A stretch of DNA of 44,769 nucleotides from Archangiaceae bacterium (GTDB taxonomy: Bacteria > Myxococcota > Myxococcia > Myxococcales > Myxococcaceae), in assembly GCA_023248915.1 (NCBI GenBank), contig JAHFDQ010000001.1, positions 1 to 44,769 on the forward strand. Reading direction: 5' to 3'. The position numbers and the translations under genes are program-made. Below are positions 6,657-24,640 of this stretch, piece after piece. The notes beneath the pieces are model-generated. The model had not been told where the DNA came from. It saw nothing but the letters and a program-made list of their open reading frames with translations, and made no database searches. The stretch's first letter is position 1; each line of letters begins with the position of its first letter.

Positions 6657-6763
6657 ACGTCCTCCCGCGGTGCTGCCCGACCCCTTTTCAAAAGCCTACG
6701 CCCCGGCGCGCTGGGCGCCGGGGCGGTAGGTGACTTCATCTGGTGCCGCTACCCGGCCCGACC

Positions 6764-8080
<1,317 letters not shown>

Positions 8081-8262
8081 GAACAGCTCCTTTCGAAACT
8101 CCTGGTCGGACCTTCCGATAGCAAGACCCGATCCCACGTCAGTTCGTCTAGTTTGTTTAGTTGTTACGGCTGCTTGTGATTGCGTCGCCCCTTGCGTCCG
8201 AGCTGGGTGTGGGGGGGAGTCCTCAGGATCATTGGGGGTCGCACCCCACAACCTCGAACCGA

Positions 8263-9858
8263 TCAAAAGCCTAGCACGAAGTCGTCGGGGGTCACCTTAA
8301 TGATGCCCTTCGGCTTCTTCTTATCGGGGGGAATGAAGCGCACCTGTTGGATGAAGAGCGACCCGATGCCGGTGCCGCGCGGGTCGGACTCGTGGCCGAC
8401 CTGCAGGTAGAAGTAGATGTCGTTGGTGCCCGCGGGAATCTTCAGGCTGGGGAAGTTCTCGTTGGGCCGTTCGATCGTGTACACCAGGCCGACGTTGGTC
8501 ACCTTGAAGTCGTAGCAGGCGCGGCCATCGGGGGTGGGGGTGCCGTCGGTGATGGCGTAACCGTAGCCGTGCTCGGCGCGGAAACCGATGTCGGCGGACA
8601 GCGCGTCGGTGTGTTGTTTCACTTCTCCGATGTTGGAGTACCCGTCGCGGTCTTGGTCGTTGAGGTCTTCCGGTATCAGCGGGTTGGTGTTGGCGAGCAA
8701 TTCGACCAGGTCGGGAATGCCGTCGCCGTCGGTGTCGGCCACGCACGGGTTGGTGCCGAGCACCCGTTCCTCGCAGTCGTTCAACCGGTCGAAGTCGGTG
8801 TCGAGGAAGGGGTTGCAGCCGTTGATGACGTCGACGTTGCCCGGCTGGGGCTTCAAGCCCATGTGCAGCTCGACGCCGTCCATCAGCCCGTCGCTGTCCG
8901 AGTCGGGGGCGATGGAGTCGGTGCCGGCGTCGGCCTCGTCGTCGTCAGGCATGCCGTCGCCGTCCGAATCGACCAGCACCTTGCCCGACCGGGCGACGGC
9001 GTTGCGGTTGAAGGCGAAGAACTGCTTCAGCACCAGCGCCCGCTGCAAGGAAGCGTAGTTGATGGCGTTCAGCGCCGCCTTCAGGTTTCCGGGGTCGGTC
9101 TCGATGAGCTGGGTGCCGCCCTGGCGGGCGATGGCGGCTCCCTGGGCGGACGCGGTGGGGTCGGCGGTGGTGCGCACGTAGATGGGCTGTATCGAGACCT
9201 CGCCGGCGCGGTACTGGTCTTCCAGCGACTTGAGCGCGCCGGTCACCGCCGACAGCTCGCAGGCCGAGCACTGCGCCGGGTCGGGCATGGCGCTGCACTT
9301 GCCTTCGATGCCGGCGTTGAAGGCCGGGTTGGCGCACGAGGTGTCGGCGTCGGAAAACACCAACACCACCAGGTAGCGGGTGCGACCGACGGTGCCCTTG
9401 CAACCGGTCTGCATGTCGCCCGACAAGAGGCTGCGGGCCAGCCTGAGCGGCGCGCGCAGCGAGATGGGGCCCGCTTCCTGGTAGCTCGAGTACTTCATGG
9501 TCGCGGTCTGAAGCTGCGCCGCGTCGACGTAGGACGCCTGAATGCCGGTGGCGACCGTGTGGTACGCCATCAGCTCGAACTTGATGTAGGGCTCGGAGAA
9601 GCGCGACCCCAGGTCCTGGAGCGCTGCGGTCACCTGCCCCACCACGGTGCGGTCGATGTTGTCGCCGCCTTCGACCGCGAACAGCACCCGCACCGGAAAG
9701 GCCTCGCCGGTCGCCAGCGGCACGCAGACGCTGCCTTCCAGGTCGACCCGGTCGGGGCCGGTGCCTGCCCCCTCGCCTATCTTGTAGAGGCCGACGTCGG
9801 TGCAACCCGAGAGCGCCCAGACGGCGGTCAGCATGAGAATCGGGCGCGAGCGGGACAT
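8263..9858 (-). CDS. Lipoprotein with a VWA-like domain (degenerate MIDAS), TSP3-type repeats and a family-specific C-terminal domain (paralog 3 of 3); first gene of the minus-strand array
   Basis: 531 aa with lipobox [10 protein letters not shown]. The position aligned to the MIDAS reads [14 protein letters not shown] instead of DxSxS. Repeats include [31 protein letters not shown] and DQDRDGYSN. The C-terminal motif is GYGYA...[16 protein letters not shown]. Confidence 0.8.
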
Positions 9859-9965
9859 GGCGCGCCGCGAAGCCTACTCCAGCGCGCCTCGTGGGGACAT
9901 CACGCAGGCGCTCGCCGCAGCGCCCGGGCGCGCGAACTATAGTGAAGGCGGTGTGCGTGTGCTCC

Positions 9966-9994
9966 TTGACGCATTGAAACCCGTTGGCTTTAGT
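9966..9994 (+). promoter_or_regulatory. Candidate sigma70-type promoter in the divergent intergenic region (TTGACG-17 nt-TTTAGT)
   Basis: TTGACG at 9966-9971 and TTTAGT at 9989-9994 are separated by 17 nt, within the 146-nt gap between the divergent gene sets. If real, the transcript would be almost leaderless relative to the ATG at 10005. This rests on sequence pattern only. Confidence 0.25.
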
Positions 9995-10004
9995 TTGGGT
10001 CCTG

Positions 10005-10370
10005 ATGCGTCTGGCTCGTGGCTTGGTGTTGTCGGTGGTGGTTTGCGCCCTGGCGCCCGCGGCTTACGCGGGTCCGAAGGGCAAGCGCGGGGGCGCGGCC
10101 AAGGCGGCCGCTCGACGCGGTGCGGCAGCTCCGGTGGTCAAGCTGAAGCCGGCCGAGGTGCCCGCCGACGCGGCGCCGAAGGACACCGGCAGCGCTCCGG
10201 TCACCCGGGGCCCGACGCGCATCGACTTCGACGACCGGTTGATCCAAGGGCAGACCAACAAGTCGGGCGCCGTCTATCTGTACGACCGCAAGGAACTCAA
10301 GACGCGCTCGATGGTCAAAAGGCGAGAGAGCTTCCGGGACGAGATCGTCGCCACGATCTACGACGACTAG
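10005..10370 (+). CDS. Small secreted protein, first gene of the Glt/Nfs-like operon (possibly GltF-like; unverified)
   Basis: The ATG at 10005 gives the signal peptide MRLARGLVLSVVVCALAPAAYA; the ORF track starts at an upstream TTG at 9984. A basic low-complexity linker follows, then a conserved-looking C-terminus RIDFDDRLIQGQTNKSGAVYLYDRKELKTRSMVKRRESFRDEI. Confidence 0.6.
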   Translation: MRLARGLVLSVVVCALAPAAYAGPKGKRGGAAKAAARRGAAAPVVKLKPAEVPADAAPKDTGSAPVTRGPTRIDFDDRLIQGQTNKSGAVYLYDRKELKTRSMVKRRESFRDEIVATIYDD

Positions 10371-10407
10371 TGCCCGAACTTCATCCGCAGTTCTCAAGGA
10401 GCTTTTT

Positions 10408-12594
10408 TTGAGCGGGCAGCCGGCGGTCCTCCAGGTCGTCATCTTGCGCGACGGGTTGCTCGTGGGCACCGAGGTGTTCGTGCCCGGCTCGTACACCCTC
10501 GGTTCGGGGGGCGAGGCCGACGTCCGCTTGGACGACGGCAGCGTCGACGGCCTGCACGCGGTGCTCTACTTCCAGAACGGCCGCGCGGCCATCCAGGACT
10601 CGGGCAGCACCACCGGCGTCTTCGTCAACGGCCACAAGATTACCGCCTGCGAAGTCCGCTCGGCCGACGAGCTCGCCATCGGCCCGTTCAGCCTGAAGTG
10701 CCGGGTGCTCGCCCAGAAGCCGGCCTCGAAGGCCGCCCCTCCGGCCGACGTCGCGGCGCTGTTGCGGGGCGGTCCGGCGCAGGCGGGCGGCGCTCCGCCC
10801 GGCGCCCCCACCAACCAGATGCGCAGGCCCCACGCTCAGCCCGCCCCTCCGAAGCAGGCCGCGCCCCCTCCGCCGACGCCGCCGCCCAGCCAACCGGGAG
10901 GGACGATGCTGTCCGCCCGCCGCCTGGCGGCGTCCTCGCCTTCGCCATCGAGTGCCAAGGGCGGTGGCCCGCACCTTCGGGCGGTGTCGGCGGCGCCGCA
11001 GTTCGAAGACGACATCGCCTCGACCGACCACCAGACCGTCGAGGCCGACCTGATGGCGGCCACCGTTCCCACCGCCAACCGCGTGGGTCGCCCGCAGGCG
11101 GCGCGCAAGGTGGAACCCGAAGGGCCGGCGACCGAGATGGTGCCGGCGGCCCAGGCACCCGAGTCGCCCAAGAAGGTGCGCGCTCGCGGCGGCCGCAAGC
11201 TGCCTGAAATCTCGGCCTCCAAGTCGAACCCGCGACTGGCCAAGGCCGACACGGCACGGGGCCTGCCCCGCCTGTTCTTCGAGCTCTACTGGGGCGAGGT
11301 GCGGCACGGGGCGCACGGCTTCGGGCCCATTCTGCCGAAGAAGCCGGTGATGGCGGCCCACCGCGGCGACGCCAACCTGCCGCTGTGGGGCTTCTCGCTG
11401 CCCACCGAGCCGATGCTGATGGCCGAGCAAGCCGGCAGCTCGTACCGCGTCTTCGTGCCGCCAGGCGCCGCCATCGAGAAGCGGCAGACCGACGACAACT
11501 TCTACCCGGTGGCCCCCGAGCAGCTCGAGTCGCGCGGCGGCCGGCGCTGCCTGACGCTGTCGAACGGCATGGCGGCGCGCTTCTCCGAGGGCGAGATGCT
11601 GCTGGTCGTCTACGTCCAGCCGGCGCTCCAGCAGCCGCGCATCAGCCCGTTGCACGGCCTGCCCTGGCTGATGCTCACGCTGCTCACGCTGTTCATGGGC
11701 GGCTTCTTCTGGTTCCTTTTGTTCGGCCCGAAGCCCGGCGAGACCGCCGACTTCATGCAAAAGGACTTGCCGCCGGTGGCGGTGCGGCTGATAGCCCCCG
11801 AACCCAAGAAAAAGGAAGAGGCGCAGAAGAAACTCGAGGCCATCAAGGAGAAGGCCGAGAAAGCCAAGAAGAAGGTCGAGACCCCGGTCGCGAAAGAGGC
11901 GCCGAAGCCCAAGAAGAAGGAACGCGAAGAACCCCCGCCGCCCACCGCCGCGCCTCCCCCCGAGACGCGCGCCCTGAAGGCGCTGGCCAAGCTGACCGCG
12001 GCCGGGCCCGCCTCGGGCGACATCTTGGCGGCGGTGGACAAGCTGGGGAACGGGCCCGGGTCGAAGAACAGCAATTTCAAGCTCTCGGGGCTCATCGGCA
12101 AAGCCCCCATCGCCAACGCCGGGCTGGGCACCTTCGGCCTGGGCGGGGGCGGCGGCGGCGGCTTCGGCACTCGCGGGGCAGAGATTTTGCGCGGCCGCGG
12201 CGGCGGCGGCATCGGCGCCCTGGGGGCGGGCAGCGTCGGCCGGGGCTCGGTCGGCGGCACGGTCACCCGGGCCTCGGCGCGAAGCCTGGGCGTGCAAGGG
12301 AGCATCGACCGCGAGGCGGTCGCCAAGTGCGTGAACTCGCACCTGCAAGAGGTGCGCGCCTGCTACGAGCGGGCCCTGTTGAGGGAACCTGGGCTGGCAG
12401 GCAAGGTGGTGCTCGAGTGGAACATCTCGACGGCCGGCAAGGTGGTATCCGCGAAGACCAAAACTTCGACCTTGCGAAACTCGGCGGTCGAGGCTTGCAT
12501 CCTCCAAAATCTGAAGGGGTGGATTTTCCCTCCCGCCAGGGGCGGGATAGTCATCGTCAGCTACCCCTTCCTCTTCAACTCGGTGGGTTACTGA
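10408..12594 (+). CDS. FHA-domain, single-pass membrane, TonB/TolA-like transducer with an AgmX/PglI-type C-terminal domain (GltG/PglI/NfsG-like)
   Basis: 728 aa. An AAGGAG RBS (10396-10401) lies 6 nt before the TTG start. The N-terminal FHA domain reads YTLGSGGEADVRLDDGSVDGLHAVLYFQNGRAAIQDSGSTTGVFVNG. The TM helix is LPWLMLTLLTLFMGGFFWFLLFG. K/E-rich, Pro-rich and Gly-rich linkers follow. The C-terminus GSIDREAVAKCVNSHLQEVRACYERAL...GKVVLEWNISTAGKV...ACILQNLKGWIFPP is typical of the myxobacterial AgmX/PglI C-terminal family. Confidence 0.85.
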   Translation: MSGQPAVLQVVILRDGLLVGTEVFVPGSYTLGSGGEADVRLDDGSVDGLHAVLYFQNGRAAIQDSGSTTGVFVNGHKITACEVRSADELAIGPFSLKCRVLAQKPASKAAPPADVAALLRGGPAQAGGAPPGAPTNQMRRPHAQPAPPKQAAPPPPTPPPSQPGGTMLSARRLAASSPSPSSAKGGGPHLRAVSAAPQFEDDIASTDHQTVEADLMAATVPTANRVGRPQAARKVEPEGPATEMVPAAQAPESPKKVRARGGRKLPEISASKSNPRLAKADTARGLPRLFFELYWGEVRHGAHGFGPILPKKPVMAAHRGDANLPLWGFSLPTEPMLMAEQAGSSYRVFVPPGAAIEKRQTDDNFYPVAPEQLESRGGRRCLTLSNGMAARFSEGEMLLVVYVQPALQQPRISPLHGLPWLMLTLLTLFMGGFFWFLLFGPKPGETADFMQKDLPPVAVRLIAPEPKKKEEAQKKLEAIKEKAEKAKKKVETPVAKEAPKPKKKEREEPPPPTAAPPPETRALKALAKLTAAGPASGDILAAVDKLGNGPGSKNSNFKLSGLIGKAPIANAGLGTFGLGGGGGGGFGTRGAEILRGRGGGGIGALGAGSVGRGSVGGTVTRASARSLGVQGSIDREAVAKCVNSHLQEVRACYERALLREPGLAGKVVLEWNISTAGKVVSAKTKTSTLRNSAVEACILQNLKGWIFPPARGGIVIVSYPFLFNSVGY

Positions 12595-12625
12595 CGTAGC
12601 CCTTCGCGGGGACGGACGGGAAAAA

Positions 12626-13240
12626 GTGCGAAAAGCCTTGCTTGGCCTGATGTTGGTCGTTCCGACCCTGGCGGTCGCCCAGTCGGAAGAGCTCGAGAAT
12701 CCGGGGACTGTGGCCGCGGTGCAGGAACGGGCCTTCCGGATGAACCACGAGCTGGTGCTGGGCCTGGGCGCCTTGCCGCTCGACGCGTTCTACAAGGGCT
12801 ACTACGGCCACCTGGCCTACGCGTTTCACTTCAGCGACAGCTTCGCCTGGCAGGTGATTCGCGGCGCCTACACCTACAACGTCAACACCGGGCTACGCGA
12901 CCAGCTCGAGCGCGACTTCGGGGTGGTGCCCACCGCGTTCGAAGAGGTGCAGTACTTCGTGGGCACGGACATCATGTGGTCGCCGCTGTACGGCAAGTCG
13001 GCGGTGCTGAACTCGTCGGTCCTTTTCTCAGAGACCTACCTCTTGCTCGGCGGGTCGGTCTTCAAGCTCACGAATCACTTCCGGCCGGCCGTCAACCTGG
13101 GGCTCGGGGTGCGGCTGTTCCAGAGCAAGTACCTCTCGTTCCGGCTCGAAGGCACCAACGACTTCGTCATCTCGGACAAACCGTTCAACATCATCACGCT
13201 CCAGCTCGAAGCGGCGGTCAACTTCGGCGCGACCGAGTGA
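12626..13240 (+). CDS. Small outer-membrane beta-barrel protein (GltH/NfsH/GltA-B family-like)
   Basis: 204 aa with a GTG start after GGACGGGA. The signal peptide is LLGLMLVVPTLAVAQ. Alternating amphipathic strands appear, and segments such as AVQERAFRMNHELVLGLGALPLDAFYKG...WSPLYGKSAVLNS recall the myxobacterial OM beta-barrel domain family. Confidence 0.7.
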   Translation: MRKALLGLMLVVPTLAVAQSEELENPGTVAAVQERAFRMNHELVLGLGALPLDAFYKGYYGHLAYAFHFSDSFAWQVIRGAYTYNVNTGLRDQLERDFGVVPTAFEEVQYFVGTDIMWSPLYGKSAVLNSSVLFSETYLLLGGSVFKLTNHFRPAVNLGLGVRLFQSKYLSFRLEGTNDFVISDKPFNIITLQLEAAVNFGATE

Positions 13241-14859
13241 GCTCGAAGGCCTTCGTGAGAAACTCCCTCGTCTTGCTCTCCTGCGTGCTCGCCGCCGGCA
13301 CCGCTCGGGCCGGCAAGGGCACCGACCCGGTCACGGGAGAGGCACCTCCGGACGACCCGGTCGCCGATGAGGCGCCCGCTCCGCTGCCGCCCGCCAAGCC
13401 CGGGGCAGGCGCCGCTCCGCCTGCCGCCGCCACGAAGTCCGAGCCCGAGGCCGAGCCCGAAGGGGCCGCCGCCCCGCAGCAGCACCAGGTGGGGCCGAAG
13501 CTCTTCGACGAGGCGCTGCAGGACTACTTCCAGGGCCGCCCCAAGGAAGCCGCGCCCAAGCTGTTCGCCTTCACCGAGAGCGTCTCGCCCACCGACGAGA
13601 ACTACGCCTGGGCGCAGTTCTTCCTCGCGCGGTCGCTGGTCGACCTGGGGTTGCGCCACGCCGGAGCCGTCTACCTGGCCCGCATCGCGCGCGAACGGTC
13701 GAACCCCGCGGTGCTGCCGAAGGCGCTGGACGAATTGCGCGGACTGGCCGACCTGCCCCACGACGAAGAGATGATCGACAACCAGGTCTTCGGGTCGCTC
13801 GACCTGGGCTTCTTGCCCGAAGAGACCGCCGGCTTCGCCCACTACCAGCAGGGACTGGTCGACCTGAAGGTCGGCAACGAGCGCTGGGCCAACACCCACT
13901 TCGCCAAGCTTACGGAAGGGTCGGCCGAGGCGTCGCGGGCGCGCTTCGCCCTCTTGGTGACGCGCCTGAAGACGACCAAGCGCGACCTGCCGAAAGAGAT
14001 GATCGACGAGTTCCTCGAGCTGTCGAAGGACCCCAAGCTGACCCAGGACTCGCGCAACGAGTCGATGCTGGCGGTGGCCCGCCTGCGCTACGAGCAGAAG
14101 GACTTCAACGGCGCGCTCGAAGCCTACGCCTCGGTGAAGCTGCCGATGCTCGACCCCGGGCGGGCGGCGCTCTACCTCGAAGAGGCGTGGACGAGGTACC
14201 AGCTCGGCCAGATTCACGCGGCGATGGGCATTCTCACCACGCTCGACGCGCCGTCGTTCCGCGACGAGTTCCTCCCGGACAAGTACATCTTGCGCTCGTT
14301 CATCTACCGCGACCTGTGCCACTACCTGCCTGCGAAGCGGGCGGCGAAGGAATTGACCCGGCGCTTCGCCGAGTCGCTCGAGGCGATTCACGAGCGCGAA
14401 GACCTGGCCCAGGACGTGCGGCTGCGCCGCGCCGCCATCTCGCACGGGGCCACCAAGCGGGCCGAGAAGTTCCTCGAGTCGCTGGACCTGGAAGGCGAGC
14501 GGCTGGGGCGCTACGCCGGCAGCTTCGGCGACCGGCTGTTCGCCTACCTCACCAAGCTGTACGACCTGGCCCACGCCGAGTCGGCGCGCATCTTCCAGGT
14601 CCGGCTCCGCGAGTCGGTGCGGGTCGAAGCCGACAAGCTCTTGCGCGCCGCCGAGCAGGTGCGGCTGATGGAATACGAGGTCGGCCTGAAGCTGTACGAG
14701 CGGGTGAAGAAGGGCGCGAAGCTGGTCAGCGAGATCAAGGAAGACCAGCTCACGCCCACCCAGGTCCGGTACCACTTCGTGAACGAGTACTGGAACGACG
14801 AGCTGCGCAACTATCGCTTCTCGTTGAAGTCGCGCTGCATCGAGGAGACCGGCCGATGA
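13237..14859 (+). CDS. TPR-like helical-repeat lipoprotein (GltE/AglT/NfsE-like)
   Basis: 540 aa. The GTG start overlaps the upstream stop (GTGA). A signal peptide with a possible lipobox (LVLLSC) is followed by a Pro/Ala-rich linker and then an all-helical repeat body. The assignment rests on size, position next to the large TPR gene and helical architecture. The exact start is uncertain; an alternative GTG lies at 13255. Confidence 0.65.
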   Translation: MSSKAFVRNSLVLLSCVLAAGTARAGKGTDPVTGEAPPDDPVADEAPAPLPPAKPGAGAAPPAAATKSEPEAEPEGAAAPQQHQVGPKLFDEALQDYFQGRPKEAAPKLFAFTESVSPTDENYAWAQFFLARSLVDLGLRHAGAVYLARIARERSNPAVLPKALDELRGLADLPHDEEMIDNQVFGSLDLGFLPEETAGFAHYQQGLVDLKVGNERWANTHFAKLTEGSAEASRARFALLVTRLKTTKRDLPKEMIDEFLELSKDPKLTQDSRNESMLAVARLRYEQKDFNGALEAYASVKLPMLDPGRAALYLEEAWTRYQLGQIHAAMGILTTLDAPSFRDEFLPDKYILRSFIYRDLCHYLPAKRAAKELTRRFAESLEAIHEREDLAQDVRLRRAAISHGATKRAEKFLESLDLEGERLGRYAGSFGDRLFAYLTKLYDLAHAESARIFQVRLRESVRVEADKLLRAAEQVRLMEYEVGLKLYERVKKGAKLVSEIKEDQLTPTQVRYHFVNEYWNDELRNYRFSLKSRCIEETGR

Positions 14860-17800
14860 GCGCGGTCGTCCCGGTGGTGGCCGCGCTCTGGGTGCTGGCA
14901 CAGACTCCGTCGCAGGTCTTCTTGCAGAACAAGTACGAGAACCCCATCGTCTCGAAGCAGAAGGAAAAAGAAGAGCTCATCACCAAGCTGAAGCGCGACA
15001 TCTACAAGGTCGATCGGTCGATCGGCGAGACCGAGAAGCTGATTACGAAGAGCCGCAACGCCCCGTACCTGCCCGACCTGCAGTTCCGCCTGGCCGAGCT
15101 GTACGTCGAGAAGAGCCGCTACGTCTATTACCTGCAGGCCGAGACCCGGCCCGATGGCACCAAGGGCGCGGTGGTCTCGCCCGAGACCAAGCTGTTGAAG
15201 CAGAAGGCGGTGCAGATCTACTACCGCGTGCTGCACGAGTACCCCGAGTTTCACGACGGCGACAAGGTCACCTTCTACCTGGCGCACGAGCAGCGCGAGC
15301 TCGGTCAGTTCGACGACATGATGAAGACGTTGGGCGAGCTCATCAAGAAGTACCCCAACAGCCCGCTGCGCCTCGATTCCGAGCAGATTCTGGGCGACTA
15401 CTACTTCGACAAGACCGACCTGACCGAGGCCGAGAAGCACTTCAAGGCCATTCTCGACGCGCCCGCCTCGCCGGTGCACGACCTCGCCCGCTACAAGATG
15501 GGGTGGATTCGCATCAACCAGGCCAACCACGCCGAGGCGGTCACCTTCTTCGAGGCCGCGGCCGCCAGCGCTCCCATTCCCGGGGTCGACCAGGCCAAGG
15601 CGCTGAACGTCAAGCGCGAGGCGCTGCTCGACCTGGTCTACAGCTACACCGAGGCGCGCCCGGCCAAGGGGGCGCTCAACTACTTCGAGAAGCTGTCCGA
15701 GTCGCGCGCCACCTACGCGCTGGCGCTCGACAAGCTGGGCAACCGGTACTTCATCAAGCAGCAGTACGAGTTCGCCATTCCCGCGCTGCGGCGCCTGCTC
15801 GAAATCCAGCCCGACCCCGAGCTCGACCTGGAACGGGCCGAGAAGATCTACGACTCGATCAAGGCCTCGAAGGGCAAGGTGGTCGCGCGGCCAGCCGACA
15901 TCCGCTTCCTGGTGCGGGCCGCGGTGCAGACCAAGGTCGACCCGGCGAAGGACGAACCGACGCGGAAGAAGCAGTTGGCCGAGCTCGAAGAGATGGGGCG
16001 CGACCTGGCCACCCAGCTTCACGTCGCGGCGCAAAAGAAGGAAGACCACCCCCACTACATGGAAGCGGCCGCGGCCTACGAGGAATACCTGGCCCTGTTC
16101 CGCCCGCGGCAGCACGTCACCACCATCATGTCGAACCGCGCCGACGCGCTGTTCGCCGCCAAGGAATTCCCGTCGGCGGCGCGCCAGTTCGAAGAGCTGG
16201 CCACCTACCTGGAAGCCAAGGACGCCAAGGCGCACGAGGCTTCGCTCTACGGGGCGCTGTTGTCGCACTACTCGTCGCTGAAGCAGGGCGAGGTCGAACG
16301 GCTGAACGCCTTCGAGGTGGCCGACGCGCGGCAGGCGCTGAAGCTGTTGGGCGCCAACTTCGTGTCGCGCTACGCCCAGAGCGAGCACGTGCTCGAGGTG
16401 AAGTTCAACATCGCCCGCGCCTACTACGAAGACGGCGAGTTCCCGAAGGCGGCCGAGCTGTTCAAGGACTTCGCCCTGAAGCACTCCGAGCACAAAGACG
16501 CCGCCGCCGCCGGCAACCTGGCCCTCGACTCGCTGCGCCAGGTGAACGACTTCAAGGGGCTGGAAACGACCGGCAAGGCCTTCCTGGCCTCGAGGCTGCC
16601 GGCGGCCTTCCTTTCCGACGTGCAGAAGATTCTCACCGAGAGCAAGGGGGAAGAGCTGGGCGAGCTGGTGCTGAAGAGCTCGGAAGAGTCGGGCGACGTC
16701 GTCGAGGGGCTGCTCAAGGTCGCCGAAGAGAACAAGGGCAAGGACATCGGCGAGAAGGCGATGCACGGGGCCTTCCAGGCGGCGCGCGACAAGCGCGACC
16801 TGCGAAAGGAACGCGAGATTGGCGCCCGCTTCATCAACGAATACCCGAAGTCCGGCTTCCTCGCCGACGTGCTGTTGACCCTGGGCAGGGCCGCGGCCGA
16901 AGGGGCGCGCTTCACCGAGGCCGCTGCCTGGTACGACCAGGTGGGGCAACGCATGGGCGCCGACTCGACTGGGCTGGACGGCTTCCTCACCAGCGGCAAG
17001 CTGAAGCTGGCGATGGGCGACTACCCCGGCGCGGCCAAGGCCTTCGGCGCCGGGGCTGACATCGCCGGGCCGCGCAAGTCCGAGGTGCTGGCCCTGATGG
17101 CCGACGCCGAGCTGAAGCAGAAGGACCCGGCCCGGGCGCGCGCGTTGGCCGAGCAGGCCCTGAAGCTCGACAGACAGAACTCCGCCGCCGCCGCCGTCGT
17201 GGCCGAGGTGCAGGCCACCACCGCGCCGCACGAGAAGCCCGACGCGCTGGTGGCGATGCTGACCGCCATCTCGAACGGCCCCAACGGGCAGAGCGAAGAC
17301 ACGGCGAAGGGGCTCTGGTTTCTGGGCGACATCCTCTACCGGAACTACAAGGCGCTGCCGGCCGACAAGGTCGAAGAGAAGGTGGCGGCGCTGCAACAGC
17401 TCGAGGGCATCTTCGGCCAGGCGGCGCAGATGGGTTCGCCCGAGTGGGCGGTCGCGGCCCTGTGGAAGATTGGCCTGTCCTACGCCCACCTGGCCGACGT
17501 CGTCGAGGGCACGCCGATGCCCGCGGGGCTGAAGCCGGCCGAGGTCGAGCAGTTTCGCAACGCGGTGAAGGAACAGGTGAACCCGTTGCGCGAAAGGTCC
17601 GACGGCGCCTTCAAGGCCTGCCTGTCTCGCGCCGAACAGCTCGAGGTCTTCAGCGCGGCGCTGGTCGGCTGCCGCACCAAGAGCGAGACCGCCAAGTCGC
17701 CCATTCCGCTTCCGTCCGAAGGACGGCCGGTCAACGTCGACGAGCTGCAGCAGAAGGCCGAAACCACCATGAACCCGTCGGCCATCGAGGCCCTGGGCAT

Positions 17801-18119
17801 GGCCTACCTGGGGGCCGGGCAGTTGGCGCTGGCGCAGCTCACCTTCGCGCGGGCGCTCGAATTGGAAGACTCGCGGGCCTCGTCCCACTCGGCGATGGGC
17901 TACGCCATGCTGTTGCAGGGCGACTCGATGGGGGCCCGGGCCGAGTACGGCAAGGCGCTGGACGCCGACCCCACCTTCGAGAAGGCCCGGGCCAACCTGG
18001 CCGCGCTGCGCTGCCGGTTCCGCGACGCCGCGGGGGCCAAGCACGAGGTGGCGGTCATCAAGGACGCGGGGGCGCTGACCGGGCCCGACGTCGACCCCGA
18101 GTGGAAGGCGTGCCGATGA
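14856..18119 (+). CDS. Large periplasmic TPR protein (GltD/AgmU/NfsD-like)
   Basis: 1087 aa. The ATG overlaps the upstream stop (ATGA). The signal peptide is MSAVVPVVAALWVLAQT. Many TPR-like units are present (YLPDLQFRLAELYVEKSRY, GDYYFDKTDLTEAEKHFKAIL, LGMAYLGAGQLALAQLTFARALELE and others). Amino-acid composition is normal, unlike the Arg/Gly-rich antisense ORF. Confidence 0.75.
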   Translation: MSAVVPVVAALWVLAQTPSQVFLQNKYENPIVSKQKEKEELITKLKRDIYKVDRSIGETEKLITKSRNAPYLPDLQFRLAELYVEKSRYVYYLQAETRPDGTKGAVVSPETKLLKQKAVQIYYRVLHEYPEFHDGDKVTFYLAHEQRELGQFDDMMKTLGELIKKYPNSPLRLDSEQILGDYYFDKTDLTEAEKHFKAILDAPASPVHDLARYKMGWIRINQANHAEAVTFFEAAAASAPIPGVDQAKALNVKREALLDLVYSYTEARPAKGALNYFEKLSESRATYALALDKLGNRYFIKQQYEFAIPALRRLLEIQPDPELDLERAEKIYDSIKASKGKVVARPADIRFLVRAAVQTKVDPAKDEPTRKKQLAELEEMGRDLATQLHVAAQKKEDHPHYMEAAAAYEEYLALFRPRQHVTTIMSNRADALFAAKEFPSAARQFEELATYLEAKDAKAHEASLYGALLSHYSSLKQGEVERLNAFEVADARQALKLLGANFVSRYAQSEHVLEVKFNIARAYYEDGEFPKAAELFKDFALKHSEHKDAAAAGNLALDSLRQVNDFKGLETTGKAFLASRLPAAFLSDVQKILTESKGEELGELVLKSSEESGDVVEGLLKVAEENKGKDIGEKAMHGAFQAARDKRDLRKEREIGARFINEYPKSGFLADVLLTLGRAAAEGARFTEAAAWYDQVGQRMGADSTGLDGFLTSGKLKLAMGDYPGAAKAFGAGADIAGPRKSEVLALMADAELKQKDPARARALAEQALKLDRQNSAAAAVVAEVQATTAPHEKPDALVAMLTAISNGPNGQSEDTAKGLWFLGDILYRNYKALPADKVEEKVAALQQLEGIFGQAAQMGSPEWAVAALWKIGLSYAHLADVVEGTPMPAGLKPAEVEQFRNAVKEQVNPLRERSDGAFKACLSRAEQLEVFSAALVGCRTKSETAKSPIPLPSEGRPVNVDELQQKAETTMNPSAIEALGMAYLGAGQLALAQLTFARALELEDSRASSHSAMGYAMLLQGDSMGARAEYGKALDADPTFEKARANLAALRCRFRDAAGAKHEVAVIKDAGALTGPDVDPEWKACR

Positions 18120-18616
18120 GCCCTTCGGCGCTCGCCTGGCTCGCCACCGTTCCGCTGGCCGCGGCCGCCTGCGGCCCGGTGCAGCCGGGGCCGCCCAAGC
18201 CGGCCCACGCCCTCGAGGGCAGCCTGTCGGTGCTGGTGGACCTGGGCTTCGACGTCGCGCACGTGGACGTCAGCGACAACGACTTGGCGGTGCGCTACGG
18301 CCGGAAGCAGGGCGACGGCGAGGACACCGTCTTCAAGGCGACCGCCATCATCTCGGACCTGGTGCTGGTGCAAAACGGCAGCATCGACCTGGCCGAGGTT
18401 CTGCCGTCGGGCGTGCAGCGGGGCCTGATGTCGCGGGACGTGCTGAATGACCCACGGCGCGCGTTTCCAAAGCTGCAGCGGGGCCGCGTCATCCTCGACC
18501 GGGTGCCGGTGTCGGGCGAGAACGTCAACGTCGACCTGGCGGTCACCTTCGAGGCGGGCATCGACTTCGCTTCGGGGCGGACGGTGTTCGGAAAGTTCGA
18601 GGCGAACGTCCTATGA
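18116..18616 (+). CDS. Hypothetical lipoprotein, translationally coupled to the GltD-like gene
   Basis: 166 aa with an ATGA overlap. The lipobox is MSPSALAWLATVPLAAAAC-G. I recognise no family; any GltK/CglC-type relationship is only a guess. Confidence 0.65.
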   Translation: MSPSALAWLATVPLAAAACGPVQPGPPKPAHALEGSLSVLVDLGFDVAHVDVSDNDLAVRYGRKQGDGEDTVFKATAIISDLVLVQNGSIDLAEVLPSGVQRGLMSRDVLNDPRRAFPKLQRGRVILDRVPVSGENVNVDLAVTFEAGIDFASGRTVFGKFEANVL

Positions 18617-19242
18617 AGCGCGCGCGAATCGCGGCGGCGGCCGGCTTGCTCGTCCTCGCCGCGGGGTGCACCAAGCGGGTGCCCGCCGACCTCATCAACA
18701 AGCTGCCCTACGACTACCGCATCGAATTGCTCGAGGCCGAGAACGACTTCGCGCTGGCCATCGACCGGCTCGACGAGGCCCAGGCGGAAATCCTCCACAC
18801 CCGCGACACGCTGCGCAGGGCCAAGGAGAGGCTGTCGGCCGCCGAGAGCGAGACCGGCCGCGCCGAGACCAAGGCCTCGCAGGAAGTCGCCACCCTGGCG
18901 GTAGACGAAGCCGACGCCCGGGTGGCCTTCCTGAGGGCAAGGCAGGCGGTCAACGTCAAGACCGAGGGCGTGCAGAAGAAGAGCCTGCGCTGCGCCGAGG
19001 CCCGGTTCGAGCAGGCGCGGATGGTGGTGGCGCGCAAGGCCAAGGTCGAGGGTTCCGAGTCGCTGCGCCCCGAAGAGTTCGACGCGCAGGTGAAGGAGTG
19101 CGATGCCGACGTGGCCGAGCTGAAAGCGGAAATGAAGGAACAGAACGACGACGCCGCGGCCGCCAAGGACGCCTGGGAAAAGCACAAGACCGCCCTGGCC
19201 CGGAAGACTTTCGACGCGAGAGCGAGCCCGTATGTCGAGTAG
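18613..19242 (+). CDS. Hypothetical coiled-coil lipoprotein
   Basis: 209 aa with an ATGA overlap and lipobox LLVLAAGC-T. The remainder is strongly helical with a heptad-like pattern (LEAENDFALAIDRLDEAQAEILHTRDTLRRAKERLSAAESE...). Confidence 0.65.
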   Translation: MKRARIAAAAGLLVLAAGCTKRVPADLINKLPYDYRIELLEAENDFALAIDRLDEAQAEILHTRDTLRRAKERLSAAESETGRAETKASQEVATLAVDEADARVAFLRARQAVNVKTEGVQKKSLRCAEARFEQARMVVARKAKVEGSESLRPEEFDAQVKECDADVAELKAEMKEQNDDAAAAKDAWEKHKTALARKTFDARASPYVE

Positions 19243-21151
19243 CCGGAAGGCCGTCGTGACGAATCTCTTGTTCATCGCGCTGCCCGCCCTGGCGGCGGCC
19301 CCCGCGGAAGAGTCCGCCGCGCTGAAGCGCACCGTCGACGTCGAGTCGGCCAACGTCCAGGCCGCTCCGGACGACACCGACGCGCTGTACCGGCTGGGGC
19401 TGGCGTACCTCGCGCTCGGCGACGCCAAGCGCGCGGTGGTTCCGCTGACCGACCTGGTGAAGAAAGACGCGGAAGCGGTCGACGCCAAGGTGCTGCTGGC
19501 GCGAGCCTTGCGGCTGTCGTCGGAAGGCGAGAAGGCGCGGGCGTTGCTGGACGCGGCGATTCTGTCCCTGCCCGACGACGCTTCGCTGCGCGCCGAGCGG
19601 GGCCTGCTCGCCCGCAGTATGAACGAGACCGACGTCGCCATCGACCAGTACGGCAAGGCGGTGCAGTTGTCGCCCCAGGACGCCGACCTGCGCTTCAACT
19701 ACGGCGAGGCGCTGCACAAGCGCGGCAAGACGGACGAGGCCATCGCCGCCTACCGCCAGGCGCTGCAGCTCAACGCCGGGCTGACCTCGGCCAAGGTGAA
19801 CCTGGGCAAGGCGCTGGCCGAGAAGGGGCTGTACGGCGAGGCCAAGGAAATTCTCACCCAGGCGTCGAAGGAAGACTTGAAGGACGCCGAGTCGCACTAC
19901 AACCTGGGCGTACTCTTGATGCGCGAGAGCAACGTCGGCGGCGCCATCGCCGAGTACCAGCGGGCGCTGGCGGTCGACCCCAAGCACGCGCTGGCCCACA
20001 ACAACCTGGGCGTGGCCTTCGACGCGAAGACGGACCACAAGGCGGCGGCCGAGGAGTTCAAGAAGGCCATCGCCACCGACTCGGGCTACGCCGAGGCGCA
20101 CTTCAACCTGGGGCTGTCGTACTTCGGCATGGGGAAGAATCTGCAAGCCACCCACGAGTTCGAGACCGCGCTGAAGCTCGAACCGCGCGCCTCGGGGCCC
20201 TACACCCAGCTCGGCACGCTGTACCTGCAGCAGGGCAAGAAGGACCGGGCGCTGGAAGCCTTCAAGAAGGCGGTGGCCGCGGTCGGCGACGACCGCATCA
20301 AGAACACCGACGCCTACCGCGGGCTGGCGCTGTCCTACCTGGCGCTGGGCCGGCCGAACGAAGCGGTCGAGACCTTGAAGACCGCGGTGAAGGCGCTGCC
20401 CGACGACGCGTCGTCGCACGCGGCGCTGGCGCAGGCCTACCTGGCGCTGGGCGACATGGACGCGGCGGTGGAAGAGCTGAAGCGCCGGCTGACGCTCGAA
20501 CCCGGCCCCGAGGCCAAGCTCGACCTGGCCAGGGCCTGGGCGAAAAAACGCGTCTCGAAGGAAGCGCTGCCCCTGTACTTGGAGCTGTTGAAGGACGACC
20601 CGAAGAGCCTTGCCGCGCGCAACGGCCTGGTCGACCTGTACATCGCGATGAGCCAGTGGCCGTCGGCCGAGCAGGTGCTGACCGACTGGTTGAAAGAAGA
20701 CCCCAACGACACCAACGCCAGCGCGAGGCTGGGCATCATCCACGCCCGAAAGGGGCGGCCCGACCTCGCCCTGCCGGCCTTAGAGGCGGTGGCGGAGAAG
20801 GACCCGACTCAGCTCGAGGCCCGGGCCGAGCTGGGCTTCCTCTACCTGCGCGGCGGCGACACCGACAAGGCGATGCGGGTGATTGGCGACGTGCTGGCCA
20901 CCGAGCCGCGGAACCCGCTGGCGCTGCACTACCTGGGCGTGGCGCTGTACCGGAAGGGCCAGGCGGCGAAGGCCGAGGAGTCGTTCAAGGCGGCGGCCCA
21001 GCTCGACCCGAAGTTCTCGGCGCCGCACTTCTCGCTGGGCGAGCTGTACGAGGCGCAGCAGAAGCTCGACGACGCGCGGCGCGAGTACGACGCGGCCGCG
21101 AAGCTCGGCCACCCCGAGGCGGCCGACGCGCTGAAGAAGCTCACCAAGTAG
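19232..21151 (+). CDS. Secreted multi-TPR protein (GltC/NfsC-like)
   Basis: 639 aa with an 11-nt overlap onto the upstream gene. The signal peptide is VVTNLLFIALPALAAAPA. At least 12 canonical TPR units follow (ALYRLGLAYLALGDAKRAV, AHNNLGVAFDAKTDHKAAAEEFKKAI, AHFNLGLSYFGMGKNLQATHEFETALKL and others). Confidence 0.75.
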   Translation: MSSSRKAVVTNLLFIALPALAAAPAEESAALKRTVDVESANVQAAPDDTDALYRLGLAYLALGDAKRAVVPLTDLVKKDAEAVDAKVLLARALRLSSEGEKARALLDAAILSLPDDASLRAERGLLARSMNETDVAIDQYGKAVQLSPQDADLRFNYGEALHKRGKTDEAIAAYRQALQLNAGLTSAKVNLGKALAEKGLYGEAKEILTQASKEDLKDAESHYNLGVLLMRESNVGGAIAEYQRALAVDPKHALAHNNLGVAFDAKTDHKAAAEEFKKAIATDSGYAEAHFNLGLSYFGMGKNLQATHEFETALKLEPRASGPYTQLGTLYLQQGKKDRALEAFKKAVAAVGDDRIKNTDAYRGLALSYLALGRPNEAVETLKTAVKALPDDASSHAALAQAYLALGDMDAAVEELKRRLTLEPGPEAKLDLARAWAKKRVSKEALPLYLELLKDDPKSLAARNGLVDLYIAMSQWPSAEQVLTDWLKEDPNDTNASARLGIIHARKGRPDLALPALEAVAEKDPTQLEARAELGFLYLRGGDTDKAMRVIGDVLATEPRNPLALHYLGVALYRKGQAAKAEESFKAAAQLDPKFSAPHFSLGELYEAQQKLDDARREYDAAAKLGHPEAADALKKLTK

Positions 21152-21170: not shown

Positions 21171-22208
21171 ATGGGCGGTAATGGGAGCTATCGGGGACTC
21201 AGCCGAACCGCGCTCGCCTTCGCCGCGGGGTTCGTTTCGGTCAGCCTCTCCCCCTCGACTGCAGCGGGCGCGACCCTGTTCTCGTGGAACGCCGACTCGG
21301 TCTCGCCGTCTTCCAGTTGCACGGCGCTCAACTCGGCGACCTTAGACGGTCTTGAACGCCACGACGGCACGAACTCGATGAAGGTGACCATACCGGGCAA
21401 CGCGCAAGGAGCCTTCGGCTGCCCGGGTGCGCCGCCCGTCTTGGTGGGTTCGGGCAGCGACGGAGGCTGGTTGTACTTCCGGTGGTGGATGAAGATGGGC
21501 TCCAATTTCACTTGGGGCGGAGGCAGCCCGAAAATGCAAGTCGGCGAGATGAAGCGCCAGGGCGACCTTACTCCAATAGCGTTCCAGCTCTGGATCGACC
21601 CGTTGAGGATTTACGTCGGTACGTGCAAGTGTCAGCAGGGCGACGCCGGTGTGCACGACGACCCGAGCGCGGCGGTCGTCTACTACGACTTCGATCCAAA
21701 ACCGAACCCGGCGGTCGCCAACTGGCAGGAGTACATCGTCGGGCTGAGGATGCAGAGCGGCGTGGATAAGTCCGACGGCGAGTTCCATCTCTGGGTGAAC
21801 GGGGTCCAGGAGGGCACCGGCGTCAAGGGAATGAGCTACTGCAATGCTGACGCTGGAAACTGCGTGGGTTGGGTTCAGGTTGCCGGCTCGATGATGGTCT
21901 CACCGTCCCCGCAGCTAGGCGGGGATGCCAGCAGCGGCGGCACGATCTGGCTCGACGACTTCTCGTTCGATGATGTTTGGAACTCGAGCATCAGTGCCGT
22001 CGATGGGGGAGAGGACGCCGGTCTCGATGCCGGGGCCGACTCGGGGCCACCCGACTCGGGAACGGCTGACTCCGGAACGCCCGACCCGGGAACGGCCGAC
22101 TACCCAGCCAACTCGAGCTACCGTGCTTTGTCCTGTGGCTGCTCACAGGCCGGTTCTGGCGTGGCGCTGCTGTTGGCCCTGCTGTTTCGGCTTCGGCGCA
22201 GGCGCTGA
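21171..22208 (+). CDS. Secreted protein with a concanavalin/polysaccharide-lyase-like beta-sandwich region and a MYXO-CTERM anchor
   Basis: 345 aa with an N-terminal signal peptide. The core (GGWLYFRWWMKMGSNFTWGG...EFHLWVNGVQEG...TIWLDDFSFDD) is reminiscent of lectin/lyase-type jelly rolls. A DAG/DSG linker repeat follows. The C-terminus is CGCSQAGSGVALLLALLFRLRRRR. The catalytic function is not established. Confidence 0.65.
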   Translation: MGGNGSYRGLSRTALAFAAGFVSVSLSPSTAAGATLFSWNADSVSPSSSCTALNSATLDGLERHDGTNSMKVTIPGNAQGAFGCPGAPPVLVGSGSDGGWLYFRWWMKMGSNFTWGGGSPKMQVGEMKRQGDLTPIAFQLWIDPLRIYVGTCKCQQGDAGVHDDPSAAVVYYDFDPKPNPAVANWQEYIVGLRMQSGVDKSDGEFHLWVNGVQEGTGVKGMSYCNADAGNCVGWVQVAGSMMVSPSPQLGGDASSGGTIWLDDFSFDDVWNSSISAVDGGEDAGLDAGADSGPPDSGTADSGTPDPGTADYPANSSYRALSCGCSQAGSGVALLLALLFRLRRRR

Positions 22209-23428: not shown

Positions 23429-24640
23429 TCAGCGCCTCTGCACGACCCGACGGCGGATTGCCGCCTTCGAGGAGAGGAACTTCGTCAGAGGAACCGCGCG
23501 CACCCGGTCCGCGAGGGAATACTCCTGGTCGCCCGCGTGAATGACGTCGAGCGAGTCGAGCTTCAGATCCGAAAGCGCGATGCGCATGGACGGCGTCAGC
23601 GTGGGGGCGCTGCTCAATTTCATCTCGAAGCCGAGGCGGCGACTGCCGCGAATGACGAGCAGGTCGAGCTCAGCGCCCTGGTGAGTGGCCCAGAAGTAGC
23701 AGTGCTCTGGCCGGGCCTCCAGGTGGTGCACCACCGTCTCGAGGCAGAGGCTCTCCCAGGAGGCCCCGGCGCGGGGGTGGCCCGCGAGCGTCCAGGCATC
23801 ACCGATGTCGAGCAGGGCGTGCAGAAGGCCCGTGTCTGCCAGATAGGCCTTCGGGGCCTTGACCTGCCGCTTCGAGAGATTCTCGTGCCAAGGAAGCAGC
23901 GTGCGAACCATGAAGGTCGCTTCCAGGGCGTCGAGGTATCCACGCACGGTCGTGTCCGCCACGCCCATCGAACGCCCCAGGTCGGACCAATTGAGGGTCT
24001 GCCCGTGCACGTGCGCCAGCATCGACCAGAAGCGGCGGAGGGTCGCAGCCGGCACTCCGATGCCGAGCTGGGCCACGTCGCGCTCGAGGAAGGTGGACAA
24101 GAATTCTCGGCGCCACTCGAGGCTGGCCTGGTCGCTTCGCGCGGTGAAAGACCGTGGGAAGCCGCCCCGCAGCCAGAGCTTCTCCAGCGCGCGAACACCG
24201 ACCTCGGCGAGTCCCAGCCCCGGGAGGTGATGAAATGCAATGCGGCCGGCGAGTGACTCCGACGTCTGGCGGAGCAGCGCGGGCGAGGCGCTGCCCAGCA
24301 CCAGGAAGCGCGGCCCCTTCGGGCGGTCCGCGAGCACGCGGAGGGTGGGAAACAGGTCGGGCCGTCGGTGCACCTCGTCGAGCACCACCAGCCCCTTGAG
24401 TGGCGCGAGGGCGCGCATCGGCTCGGCGAGGCGCGCGAGCTGGTCAGGGTTCTCGAGGTCGAACACCGTGGTCGGGCCCCGCCACGTCCCGCTGAGCTGG
24501 CGCGCCAGGGTGCTCTTCCCGACCTGTCGAGCGCCGACGATGGCCACCACGCGGAAGCGCCGCAGGAGGTCGGTCACCCGCCGCAGGTGGTAGGCCCGAT
24601 CGATCACCGCGCGAGATGTTACCATGAATATTCGGTTCAT
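23429..24640 (-). CDS. AAA-family ATPase with a DUF4143-type C-terminal domain
   Basis: 403 aa. The Walker A motif is VVAIVGARQVGKSTLARQL and Walker B-like is LVVLDEVH. The C-terminal part (KAYLADTGLLHALL...GASWESLCLETV) is typical of the DUF4143 ATPase family. Confidence 0.85.
   Translation of the reverse strand: MNRIFMVTSRAVIDRAYHLRRVTDLLRRFRVVAIVGARQVGKSTLARQLSGTWRGPTTVFDLENPDQLARLAEPMRALAPLKGLVVLDEVHRRPDLFPTLRVLADRPKGPRFLVLGSASPALLRQTSESLAGRIAFHHLPGLGLAEVGVRALEKLWLRGGFPRSFTARSDQASLEWRREFLSTFLERDVAQLGIGVPAATLRRFWSMLAHVHGQTLNWSDLGRSMGVADTTVRGYLDALEATFMVRTLLPWHENLSKRQVKAPKAYLADTGLLHALLDIGDAWTLAGHPRAGASWESLCLETVVHHLEARPEHCYFWATHQGAELDLLVIRGSRRLGFEMKLSSAPTLTPSMRIALSDLKLDSLDVIHAGDQEYSLADRVRAVPLTKFLSSKAAIRRRVVQRR

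Follow-up and report, generated by a model that had tools for sequence, protein, structure and literature searches.

A very probable ortholog of the Myxococcus xanthus G5 cluster: an eight-gene, translationally coupled envelope operon without an adjacent motor, divergent from mts-like genes

The DNA analysed here, referred to as the window, is the whole 44,769-nucleotide (44.8-kb) stretch of contig JAHFDQ010000001.1 from the assembly GCA_023248915.1 of an Archangiaceae bacterium. Its G+C content is about 68%, and MYXO-CTERM-type tails on proteins encoded in it fit an origin in Myxococcota. The plus strand carries eight genes, g1 to g8, that form one translationally coupled operon and encode relatives of the Glt gliding and Nfs sporulation machineries of Myxococcus xanthus. 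It is close to certain that this operon is the ortholog of the M. xanthus cluster known as G5 (MXAN_1327-1331), and its divergent neighbour is an operon of mts-like genes. The positions of these features are collected in Table 1.

Table 1. Features discussed in the text, numbered by position in the window unless another locus (L number) is named
Feature	Positions	Strand	Description
G5-type operon	10005-21151	+	eight genes in the order F-G-B-C-D-lipoprotein-lipoprotein-TPR
g1	10005-10370	+	121 aa
g2	10408-12594	+	728 aa
g3	12626-13240	+	204 aa
g4	13237-14859	+	540 aa
g5	14856-18119	+	1087 aa
g6	18116-18616	+	166 aa
g7	18613-19242	+	209 aa
g8	19232-21151	+	639 aa
Divergent intergenic region	9859-10004		146 nt between g1 and the first mts-like gene
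mts-like operon	2926-9858	-	divergent neighbour, associated with the G5-type operon
MtsD-like lipoprotein	8263-9858	-	
MtsC	6764-8266	-	MYXO-CTERM tail; NF047638 609 bits, cut-off 350
MtsD	4707-6656	-	VWA and TSP3 repeats; NF047639 1071 bits, cut-off 800
Second MtsD-like protein/lipoprotein	2926-4710	-	
Motor-in-cis locus of L084	2548-8267		'Deltaproteobacteria bacterium' metagenome-assembled genome; 837-aa FHA/GltG-like gene, then two small genes, an uncalled 1.7-kb gap and a GltD-like gene
MXAN_1332-like gene in L047	2376-4811	-	

The junctions between the eight genes are tight throughout. Start and stop codons overlap as GTGA at 13237 (g3/g4) and as ATGA at 14856 (g4/g5), 18116 (g5/g6) and 18613 (g6/g7), g7 and g8 share 11 nt (19232-19242), and the remaining junctions are gaps of 37 nt between g1 and g2 (10371-10407) and of 31 nt between g2 and g3 (12595-12625). 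An earlier, sequence-only reading of this DNA had listed these overlaps and gaps of 31-37 nt, and all of them are present; its single operon also stands, as the coupled plus-strand array is real and the coupling is kept in relatives. Its count of nine genes has to be lowered to eight, the number to which its own list sums, and the gaps are too small for another gene. The coding signal is strong, with a G+C content at third codon positions (GC3) of 0.92-0.93, computed directly, for g4 to g7 (13237-19242), and g1, g2, g3 and g8 are open frames with a GC3 of 0.85-0.93. The divergent intergenic region presumably carries the promoters for both g1 and the mts-like genes; a sigma-70 consensus scan found no promoter in its 146 nt. 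A consensus scan for terminators returned a surplus of terminator-like sites on the minus strand, inside coding sequence, and this surplus is treated as compositional.

The first three products resemble GltF, GltG and GltB. The g1 protein is secreted, with a signal peptide cleaved between AYA and GP, and its C-terminal 60 residues (59-118) align to positions 26-85 of the 88 in the model NF033764 (gliding_CglF; E 6.2e-9, 35.8 bits, missing the cut-off of 90), which points to a GltF/CglF-like protein and a positional ortholog of MXAN_1331. The g2 gene opens with a TTG codon, 6 nt downstream of an AAGGAG ribosome-binding site. Read from the N-terminus, its product has an FHA domain, then a Pro-rich linker, a single transmembrane helix around residues 440-465, a linker rich in Lys, Glu, Pro and Gly and, at the C-terminus, a TonB-C-like domain of the AgmX/PglI family. 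The FHA domain scores 46.3 bits against PF00498, above the cut-off of 20.7, and the full GltG model, NF033760, aligns to residues 202-727 with 206.5 bits, short of its cut-off of 650. The C-terminal domain (residues 633-724) reaches 108.8 bits against NF033768, whose cut-off is 40, so that the AgmX/PglI membership proposed by the sequence-only reading is borne out, while the canonical TonB_Cterm model TIGR01352 gives 18.5 bits, below its cut-off of 27.1. A sequence search of the PDB with g2 returned FHA matches only. By these features g2 is a GltG-like bitopic inner-membrane protein, orthologous to MXAN_1330. The g3 protein carries a signal peptide and passes the cut-off of TIGR04565 (OMP_myx_plus; 91.1 bits against 60), as expected of an outer-membrane beta-barrel of the GltA/B/H type; its likely M. 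xanthus ortholog, MXAN_1329, is listed as a GltB homolog, so the earlier label "H-like" for this 204-aa barrel gives way to a GltB-type one.

In an alignment of the g2 FHA domain (10408-10740) with those of M. xanthus (L047) and of loci L081-L087, the Arg/Ser/Asn triad that binds phosphothreonine, whose positions we take to be those of the general FHA consensus, reads Ser/Asp/Thr in the window. The triad is also lost in L047, L081, L083 and L087, with M. stipitatus among the losers, and it is kept in L082, L084, L085 and L086. In L082 and L086, both of which keep the triad, genes for a Ser/Thr kinase and an FHA-sigma54 activator lie just 3' of the cluster.

The next two genes encode a putative connector and a putative scaffold. 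The N-terminus of g4 is a signal peptide or lipobox-like, and its sole NCBIfam match is the GltC model NF033756 (E 6.7e-21, 74.6 bits, missing the cut-off of 450), confined to residues 263-379. Together with an identity of 64-80% across 77 related loci, this suggests a GltC-like periplasmic connector orthologous to MXAN_1328 (538 aa). The g5 protein matches TPR families of Pfam and weakly resembles YbgF/CpoB- and BamD-type TPR modules; it is 68% identical to a 1089-aa M. xanthus protein that has the length of MXAN_1327, the GltD homolog of G5, and its orthologs in 80 species loci are 61-75% identical, which is what would be expected of a GltD-like TPR scaffold. No gliding_GltD model was matched by g5 in NCBIfam; as phmmer gives hundreds of homologs of g5, the library probably contains no model of that kind.

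The last three genes encode two lipoproteins and a TPR protein. The g6 protein is a lipoprotein with an invariant Cys19; in 77 loci its gene comes after the GltD-like one, with an identity of 31-53%. It matches no Pfam or NCBIfam family, and its AlphaFold2 model, all-beta with nine strands (pLDDT 70), finds nothing in the PDB by Foldseek at E<0.1; sequence searches of the PDB with g4 and g6 gave no match either. The g7 protein, a lipoprotein with the lipobox LAAGC that is kept in 76 loci, belongs to no family found; its single-sequence AlphaFold2 model is a three-helix coiled coil (helices 33-76, 83-142 and 153-203; pLDDT 76) with generic BAR/coiled-coil matches only, at E>=0.018. As modelled, neither structure points to a function. 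The secreted g8 protein, at the same position in 75 loci, scores more than 200 bits with each of TPR_16, TPR_2 and TPR_19. Its best Glt model is GltE (NF033758; 128 bits, missing the cut-off of 225), below the generic TPR models, so that g8 looks like a generic multi-TPR protein and possibly a functional stand-in for GltE. The sequence-only reading had called the 540-aa protein E-like and the 639-aa protein C-like; the two labels were swapped. Since g1, g2, g4 and g8 all score below the Glt equivalog cut-offs, they are best regarded as paralogs of the gliding proteins and not as the gliding proteins themselves.

The arrangement of these genes has a published counterpart. Luciano 2011 (PMC3169522) described the M. 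xanthus gliding clusters G1, G2 and M1 together with the paralogous copies G3 (nfs), G4, G5 and M2, and Table S3 of that work lists for G5 the genes MXAN_1327 (1089 aa, GltD homolog), MXAN_1328 (538 aa, GltC), MXAN_1329 (246 aa, GltB), MXAN_1330 (749 aa, FHA, GltG) and MXAN_1331 (162 aa, GltF). The window repeats the order F-G-B-C-D with products of 121, 728, 204, 540 and 1087 aa, against 162, 749, 246, 538 and 1089 aa in G5. In the M. xanthus locus examined here (L047, strain AM003), open reading frames in the G5 arrangement have the exact published lengths 1089, 538 and 246 aa, and all eight window genes match this locus in order, with best local tblastn identities of 38-71% (55-71% for the five published genes, 71% for g1). 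The MXAN numbering could be cross-checked, since MtsC is MXAN_1334 and L047 has a partial MtsC homolog further upstream than the F-like gene, at its end. Table S3 (PMC3169522) does not count g6-g8, which encode the lipoproteins and the TPR protein, as part of G5; by position, the M. xanthus counterparts of g6-g8 are MXAN_1326-1324.

A neighbour-joining tree of 99 full-length GltD-like representatives places g5 in a distinct clade, at 38-67% identity, and leaves the paralog clades unlabelled. Cluster members of ten representatives carried generic or empty names only, and GltD, NfsD and MXAN_1922 could not be placed in the tree; the 68% identity of g5 to the M. xanthus 1089-aa protein and the synteny argue for orthology with MXAN_1327. 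A search of the literature on MXAN_1324-1332 and on G4/G5 returned nothing beyond Luciano 2011 and one transcriptome paper, which labels MXAN_1327 part of a Tad-like pilus cluster. The sequence-only reading had seen a Glt/Nfs-related envelope cluster with an order unlike G1/G2 and Nfs and with no established function. All three observations carry over to G5: the Glt-family domains and the orthology agree with the first, the order F-G-B-C-D-lipoprotein-lipoprotein-TPR with the second, and G5 has likewise been without a known function since 2011.

The unit is larger than the five published genes and is widely kept. One genome per species was scanned with an alignment of GltD-like orthologs, which yielded 80 loci from other Myxococcota species, and the eight-gene order and strand are kept in every locus that is long enough. 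The genes were found in 80 (g5), 77 (g4), 77 (g6), 76 (g7), 75 (g8), 63 (g3), 57 (g2) and 51 (g1) loci, and where absences were checked, they fall at contig ends. The positions of g6-g8 are kept equally well as those of the five published genes, and the unit therefore comprises eight genes. The GltC-like and GltD-like genes share a 4-nt overlap in all five inspected distant or complete-genome loci in which both are called. The GltD-like family is broad, with 333 representative clusters at E<=1e-30 (phmmer against 1.84 billion representative proteins). Even at about 40-45% GltD-like identity, the distant loci L082, L083, L085 and L086 keep the full eight-gene array; in L087 the array is kept up to the GltD-like gene, and what follows is different. 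Where the window has a single barrel gene, L085 has two in tandem, of about 210 aa (7135-8419). A decaying redundant paralog was also considered and is ruled out by the state of the genes, all eight being intact, collinear and conserved across the 80 loci at 31-88% best local tblastn segment identity.

A consistent feature of these loci is that they lack a motor. None of the scanned open reading frames of the window matches PF01618 or PF02472, and a six-frame tblastn search of the window with a related MotA/ExbB and two ExbD queries found none (a spurious hit at E=9.8 only), in agreement with the sequence-only reading, which had noted no motor genes in view. The same search found no motor in 86 other G5-type loci, within about 5-10 kb. 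With no motor gene in the window or in these loci, coupling to a motor can only be inferred. The sister clade, at about 34-36% identity, differs: in L084, genes for MotA_ExbB, ExbD and ExbD lie immediately upstream of the FHA/GltG-like gene, and this locus looks like a motor-in-cis relative of G5. A sister clade with a motor in cis indicates that the lineage is motor-coupled, and G5 is a motor-less derivative of that lineage, not an ancestral core. In Bdellovibrio, an F-G-B-C block (Bd1474-1477, within Bd1474-1481) stands beside a D gene and a motor, and a second cluster (Bd2369-2377) has G-B-C in Bd2369-2372 with no GltF homolog listed (table in PMC3169522). M. xanthus itself has an orphan motor, M2 (PMC3169522), and the Nfs system, which has no motor of its own, uses AglRQS in trans (PMC3858216).

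With reasonable though not high confidence, the best explanation of the data is a G5 ortholog that works as an envelope spine powered in trans. The available model of the Agl-Glt machine, an AlphaFold prediction (PMC11761067), provides the molecular framework: GltC forms a clamp on the N-termini of the GltA/B barrels in the periplasm, GltF acts as a bridge between GltC, GltD and the C-terminal, TonB-like domain of GltG, and GltG runs along GltD and places its transmembrane helix in the AglRQS stator. An interaction between AglR and GltG has been found experimentally. Since the link between the two membranes in that model, together with one barrel, is also what G5 encodes, we propose that it builds the same spine and draws its energy from a motor in trans, and we hold this energised mechanism itself to be slightly better than an even bet. 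Specifically, by homology the G5 proteins would rebuild the force-transmission spine predicted for Agl-Glt. The transmembrane helix of the GltG-like protein would dock on a stator of the proton-driven TolQR/ExbBD type whose genes lie elsewhere (AglRQS, as for Nfs, or else an orphan motor of the M2 type), and its periplasmic TonB-C-like domain would bind the long GltD-like TPR scaffold. The GltF-like protein would bridge this TonB-C domain to the GltC-like connector, which in turn would clamp the periplasmic N-terminus of the outer-membrane barrel, and g6, g7 and g8 would complete the outer-membrane side. Such a machine might move or hold some surface cargo.

Several observations weigh against this explanation. 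No motor gene was found in the window or near any of the 86 other loci. The 44.8-kb window has no counterparts of GltI, GltJ, GltA, GltH or GltK, so the complex would be much reduced. The loss of the FHA triad in the window and in the Myxococcus orthologs may mean that the binding of cytoplasmic partners differs from that of GltG. The GltD, NfsD and G4 clades are unlabelled in our own tree, so that the placement within the family rests on the published analysis. An insertion mutant of MXAN_1327 shows wild-type gliding and twitching, including twitching on soft agar (PMC3169522), and no phenotype thus anchors the function.

The nature of a possible cargo brings in the divergent neighbour. The mts-like operon encodes MtsC and MtsD, both of which pass their equivalog cut-offs, and two MtsD-like paralogs with thrombospondin type-3 repeats that score 94 and 142 bits, below cut-off; its genes overlap at 8263-8266 and 4707-4710. 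The mts locus is reported to be important for cell-cell cohesion, for development and for S motility (Zhang 2007, cited by PMC11980579). Among the Myxococcaceae/Archangiaceae loci with sufficient sequence upstream, about 47 in number, 26 show the same adjacency, as do three of five distant G5-type loci (L083, L085 and L087), while genes 3' of the cluster are never conserved among the 80 loci. No mts-like gene was present in the upstream sequence examined from C. coralloides, Hyalangium, A. gephyra, L082 and L086. The GltF-like gene and the mts genes are separated in 39 related loci by a further gene, of about 770-830 aa, with a beta-propeller repeat hit and two CxxCH haem-binding motifs and positionally MXAN_1332. 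By tblastn this gene leaves no trace in the window; it is likewise missing between the GltF-like and mts genes of L011 and L012, and most other loci without it show no mts genes in the sequence examined.

These observations suggest a refinement that names the cargo and does not exclude the spine, namely that G5 is a dedicated envelope partner of the Mts cohesion proteins with thrombospondin repeats and VWA domains, retaining, exposing or pulling them. In its fullest form, this would make G5-type clusters a third functional specialisation of the Glt/Nfs family, a spine with its motor in trans that positions or tensions Mts adhesins much as Glt does with CglB and CglD. Both versions are tentative, and each is considerably less likely to be right than wrong. 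In their favour stand the recurrent adjacency, the closeness of MtsC (MXAN_1334) to G5 in M. xanthus, and the Glt precedent, in which the VWA adhesin CglB needs the GltABH/K/C module (PMC9946355) and CglD has been called an integrin-like adhesin (bioRxiv 10.1101/2023.10.19.562135). However, the two sets of genes are divergent and not co-transcribed, the unrelated gene of about 800 aa intervenes in most Myxococcaceae, and the adjacency is not universal, with several genomes showing no upstream mts-like gene. Moreover, the MXAN_1327 mutant twitches normally, whereas mts is reported to be needed for S motility (cited in PMC11980579), and MYXO-CTERM proteins already reach the surface through type II secretion (T2SS) and myxosortase.

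A second possibility, improbable in our view, is that the cluster encodes a static, unpowered tether or scaffold across inner membrane, peptidoglycan and outer membrane that serves integrity or sorting, and that the motor genes were lost as the need for them vanished. The missing motor in all 87 G5-type loci (the window included) next to a sister clade that has one, the degenerate FHA triad and the weak likeness of the GltD-like protein to YbgF/CpoB and BamD-type modules would all suit such a tether. Against it, the AgmX/PglI domain and the single-helix layout of the GltG-like protein, which together form the stator-docking element of the family, are strongly conserved, and Nfs shows that a system without its own motor can draw on AglRQS in trans (PMC3858216).

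The sequence-only reading had proposed either an unseen third type of the apparatus or its ancestral core, and this is now very unlikely. While the order does differ from G1/G2 and Nfs and the function is not known, a cluster that agrees with it in genes, order and sizes has been in print as G5 since 2011, and the window has the Group A genes gltF-like and gltB-like, lacks the aglRQS genes that define the core, has a sister clade with a motor in cis and shares its F-G-B-C block with Bd1474-1477, where D and a motor stand alongside. That the operon is the gliding or the sporulation machine itself, merely rearranged, is hardly credible: its best NCBIfam models are indeed GltG, GltC and CglF, but the scores lie far under the equivalog cut-offs (206 against 650, 75 against 450 and 36 against 90), counterparts of GltI, GltJ, GltK, GltA and GltH are absent from the window, and the M. 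xanthus ortholog is separate from G1/G2 and nfs, and its mutant glides normally.

Three further genes of the window were noted. Positions 21171-22208 (+), beginning 19 nt 3' of the last stop codon of the operon, encode a 345-aa protein that has a signal peptide and a tail of MYXO-CTERM-like type (…GCSQAGSG…RLRRRR). It has a GC3 of 0.79, lower than that of the operon, belongs to no family and is absent from all related loci, and may be a lineage-specific, co-transcribed addition. Also 3' of the cluster lies a gene for an AAA_14/DUF4143 ATPase (23429-24640, -), an adjacency kept in no relative. Near the left end of the window, a gene at 225-1505 (-) encodes a HipA-family toxin kinase with HipA_C and Couple_hipA domains.

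The Glt/Nfs family is an example of one proton-driven envelope machine that has been re-used for gliding and for spore-coat assembly, and within it the M. xanthus paralog sets G4 and G5 have had no function assigned since 2011. The sequence finding itself re-identifies a described cluster. What it adds is the definition of G5 as eight coupled genes instead of the five published, conserved over Myxococcaceae, Archangiaceae and deeper uncultured lineages, the consistent lack of a motor in cis and a testable link to mts. The repeated adjacency to mts gives a cluster of no known function a question that can be put to experiment in a model organism that is easy to work with. If the link is true, G5, and perhaps the orphan motor M2, would gain a role in cell-cell cohesion and multicellular development.

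Among known systems, M. xanthus G5 is the closest, sharing with the window the five homologs in F-G-B-C-D order, the lack of an adjacent motor and the mts neighbourhood. The host differs, as it belongs to a Myxococcaceae-like lineage that is uncultured and has its best relatives at 74-81% identity, and the gene of about 800 aa between cluster and mts is present in M. xanthus but not in the window. Agl-Glt, made up of G1 (gltD-J), G2 (gltK/B/A/C) and M1 (aglRQS), has homologs of the GltF, GltG, GltB-type barrel, GltC and GltD proteins of the window, and these shared five are the proteins predicted to link inner and outer membrane (PMC11761067), with all parts predicted to lie in the envelope. 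The window set is a paralog of it and not an ortholog, with one barrel instead of three, a degenerate FHA triad, a different order and a single operon, and it lacks GltI, GltJ, GltK, CglB and a motor in cis; the M. xanthus G5 mutant, moreover, glides normally. Nfs (nfsA-H, G3) is likewise a single-cluster Glt paralog set without a motor of its own and thereby the precedent for a motor in trans. It runs from A to H, with two barrels and an H protein, and its members are the closest relatives of Glt, while G5 has another order and fewer parts; no sporulation role has been reported for G5.

Further afield, the Bdellovibrio clusters Bd1474-1481 and Bd2369-2377 and L084 have, like the window, a G-barrel-C block beside a GltD homolog (in L084, a G-like gene and then two small genes), but they include MotA/ExbB and two ExbD genes, which G5-type loci never do. 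The core complex found in Gamma- and Betaproteobacteria, Geobacter and Fibrobacter has gltD/E/G/C and aglRQS in one operon, the Group B operon, whereas gltF and gltB, which belong to Group A, occur in Myxococcales and Bdellovibrionales only (PMC3169522). G5 shares GltD, GltG and GltC homologs with this core complex, whose function is likewise not known. The core has a motor in cis and no gltF or gltB-type barrel; G5 shows the opposite pattern, which argues that it is a derived form of the machine and not the ancestral one.

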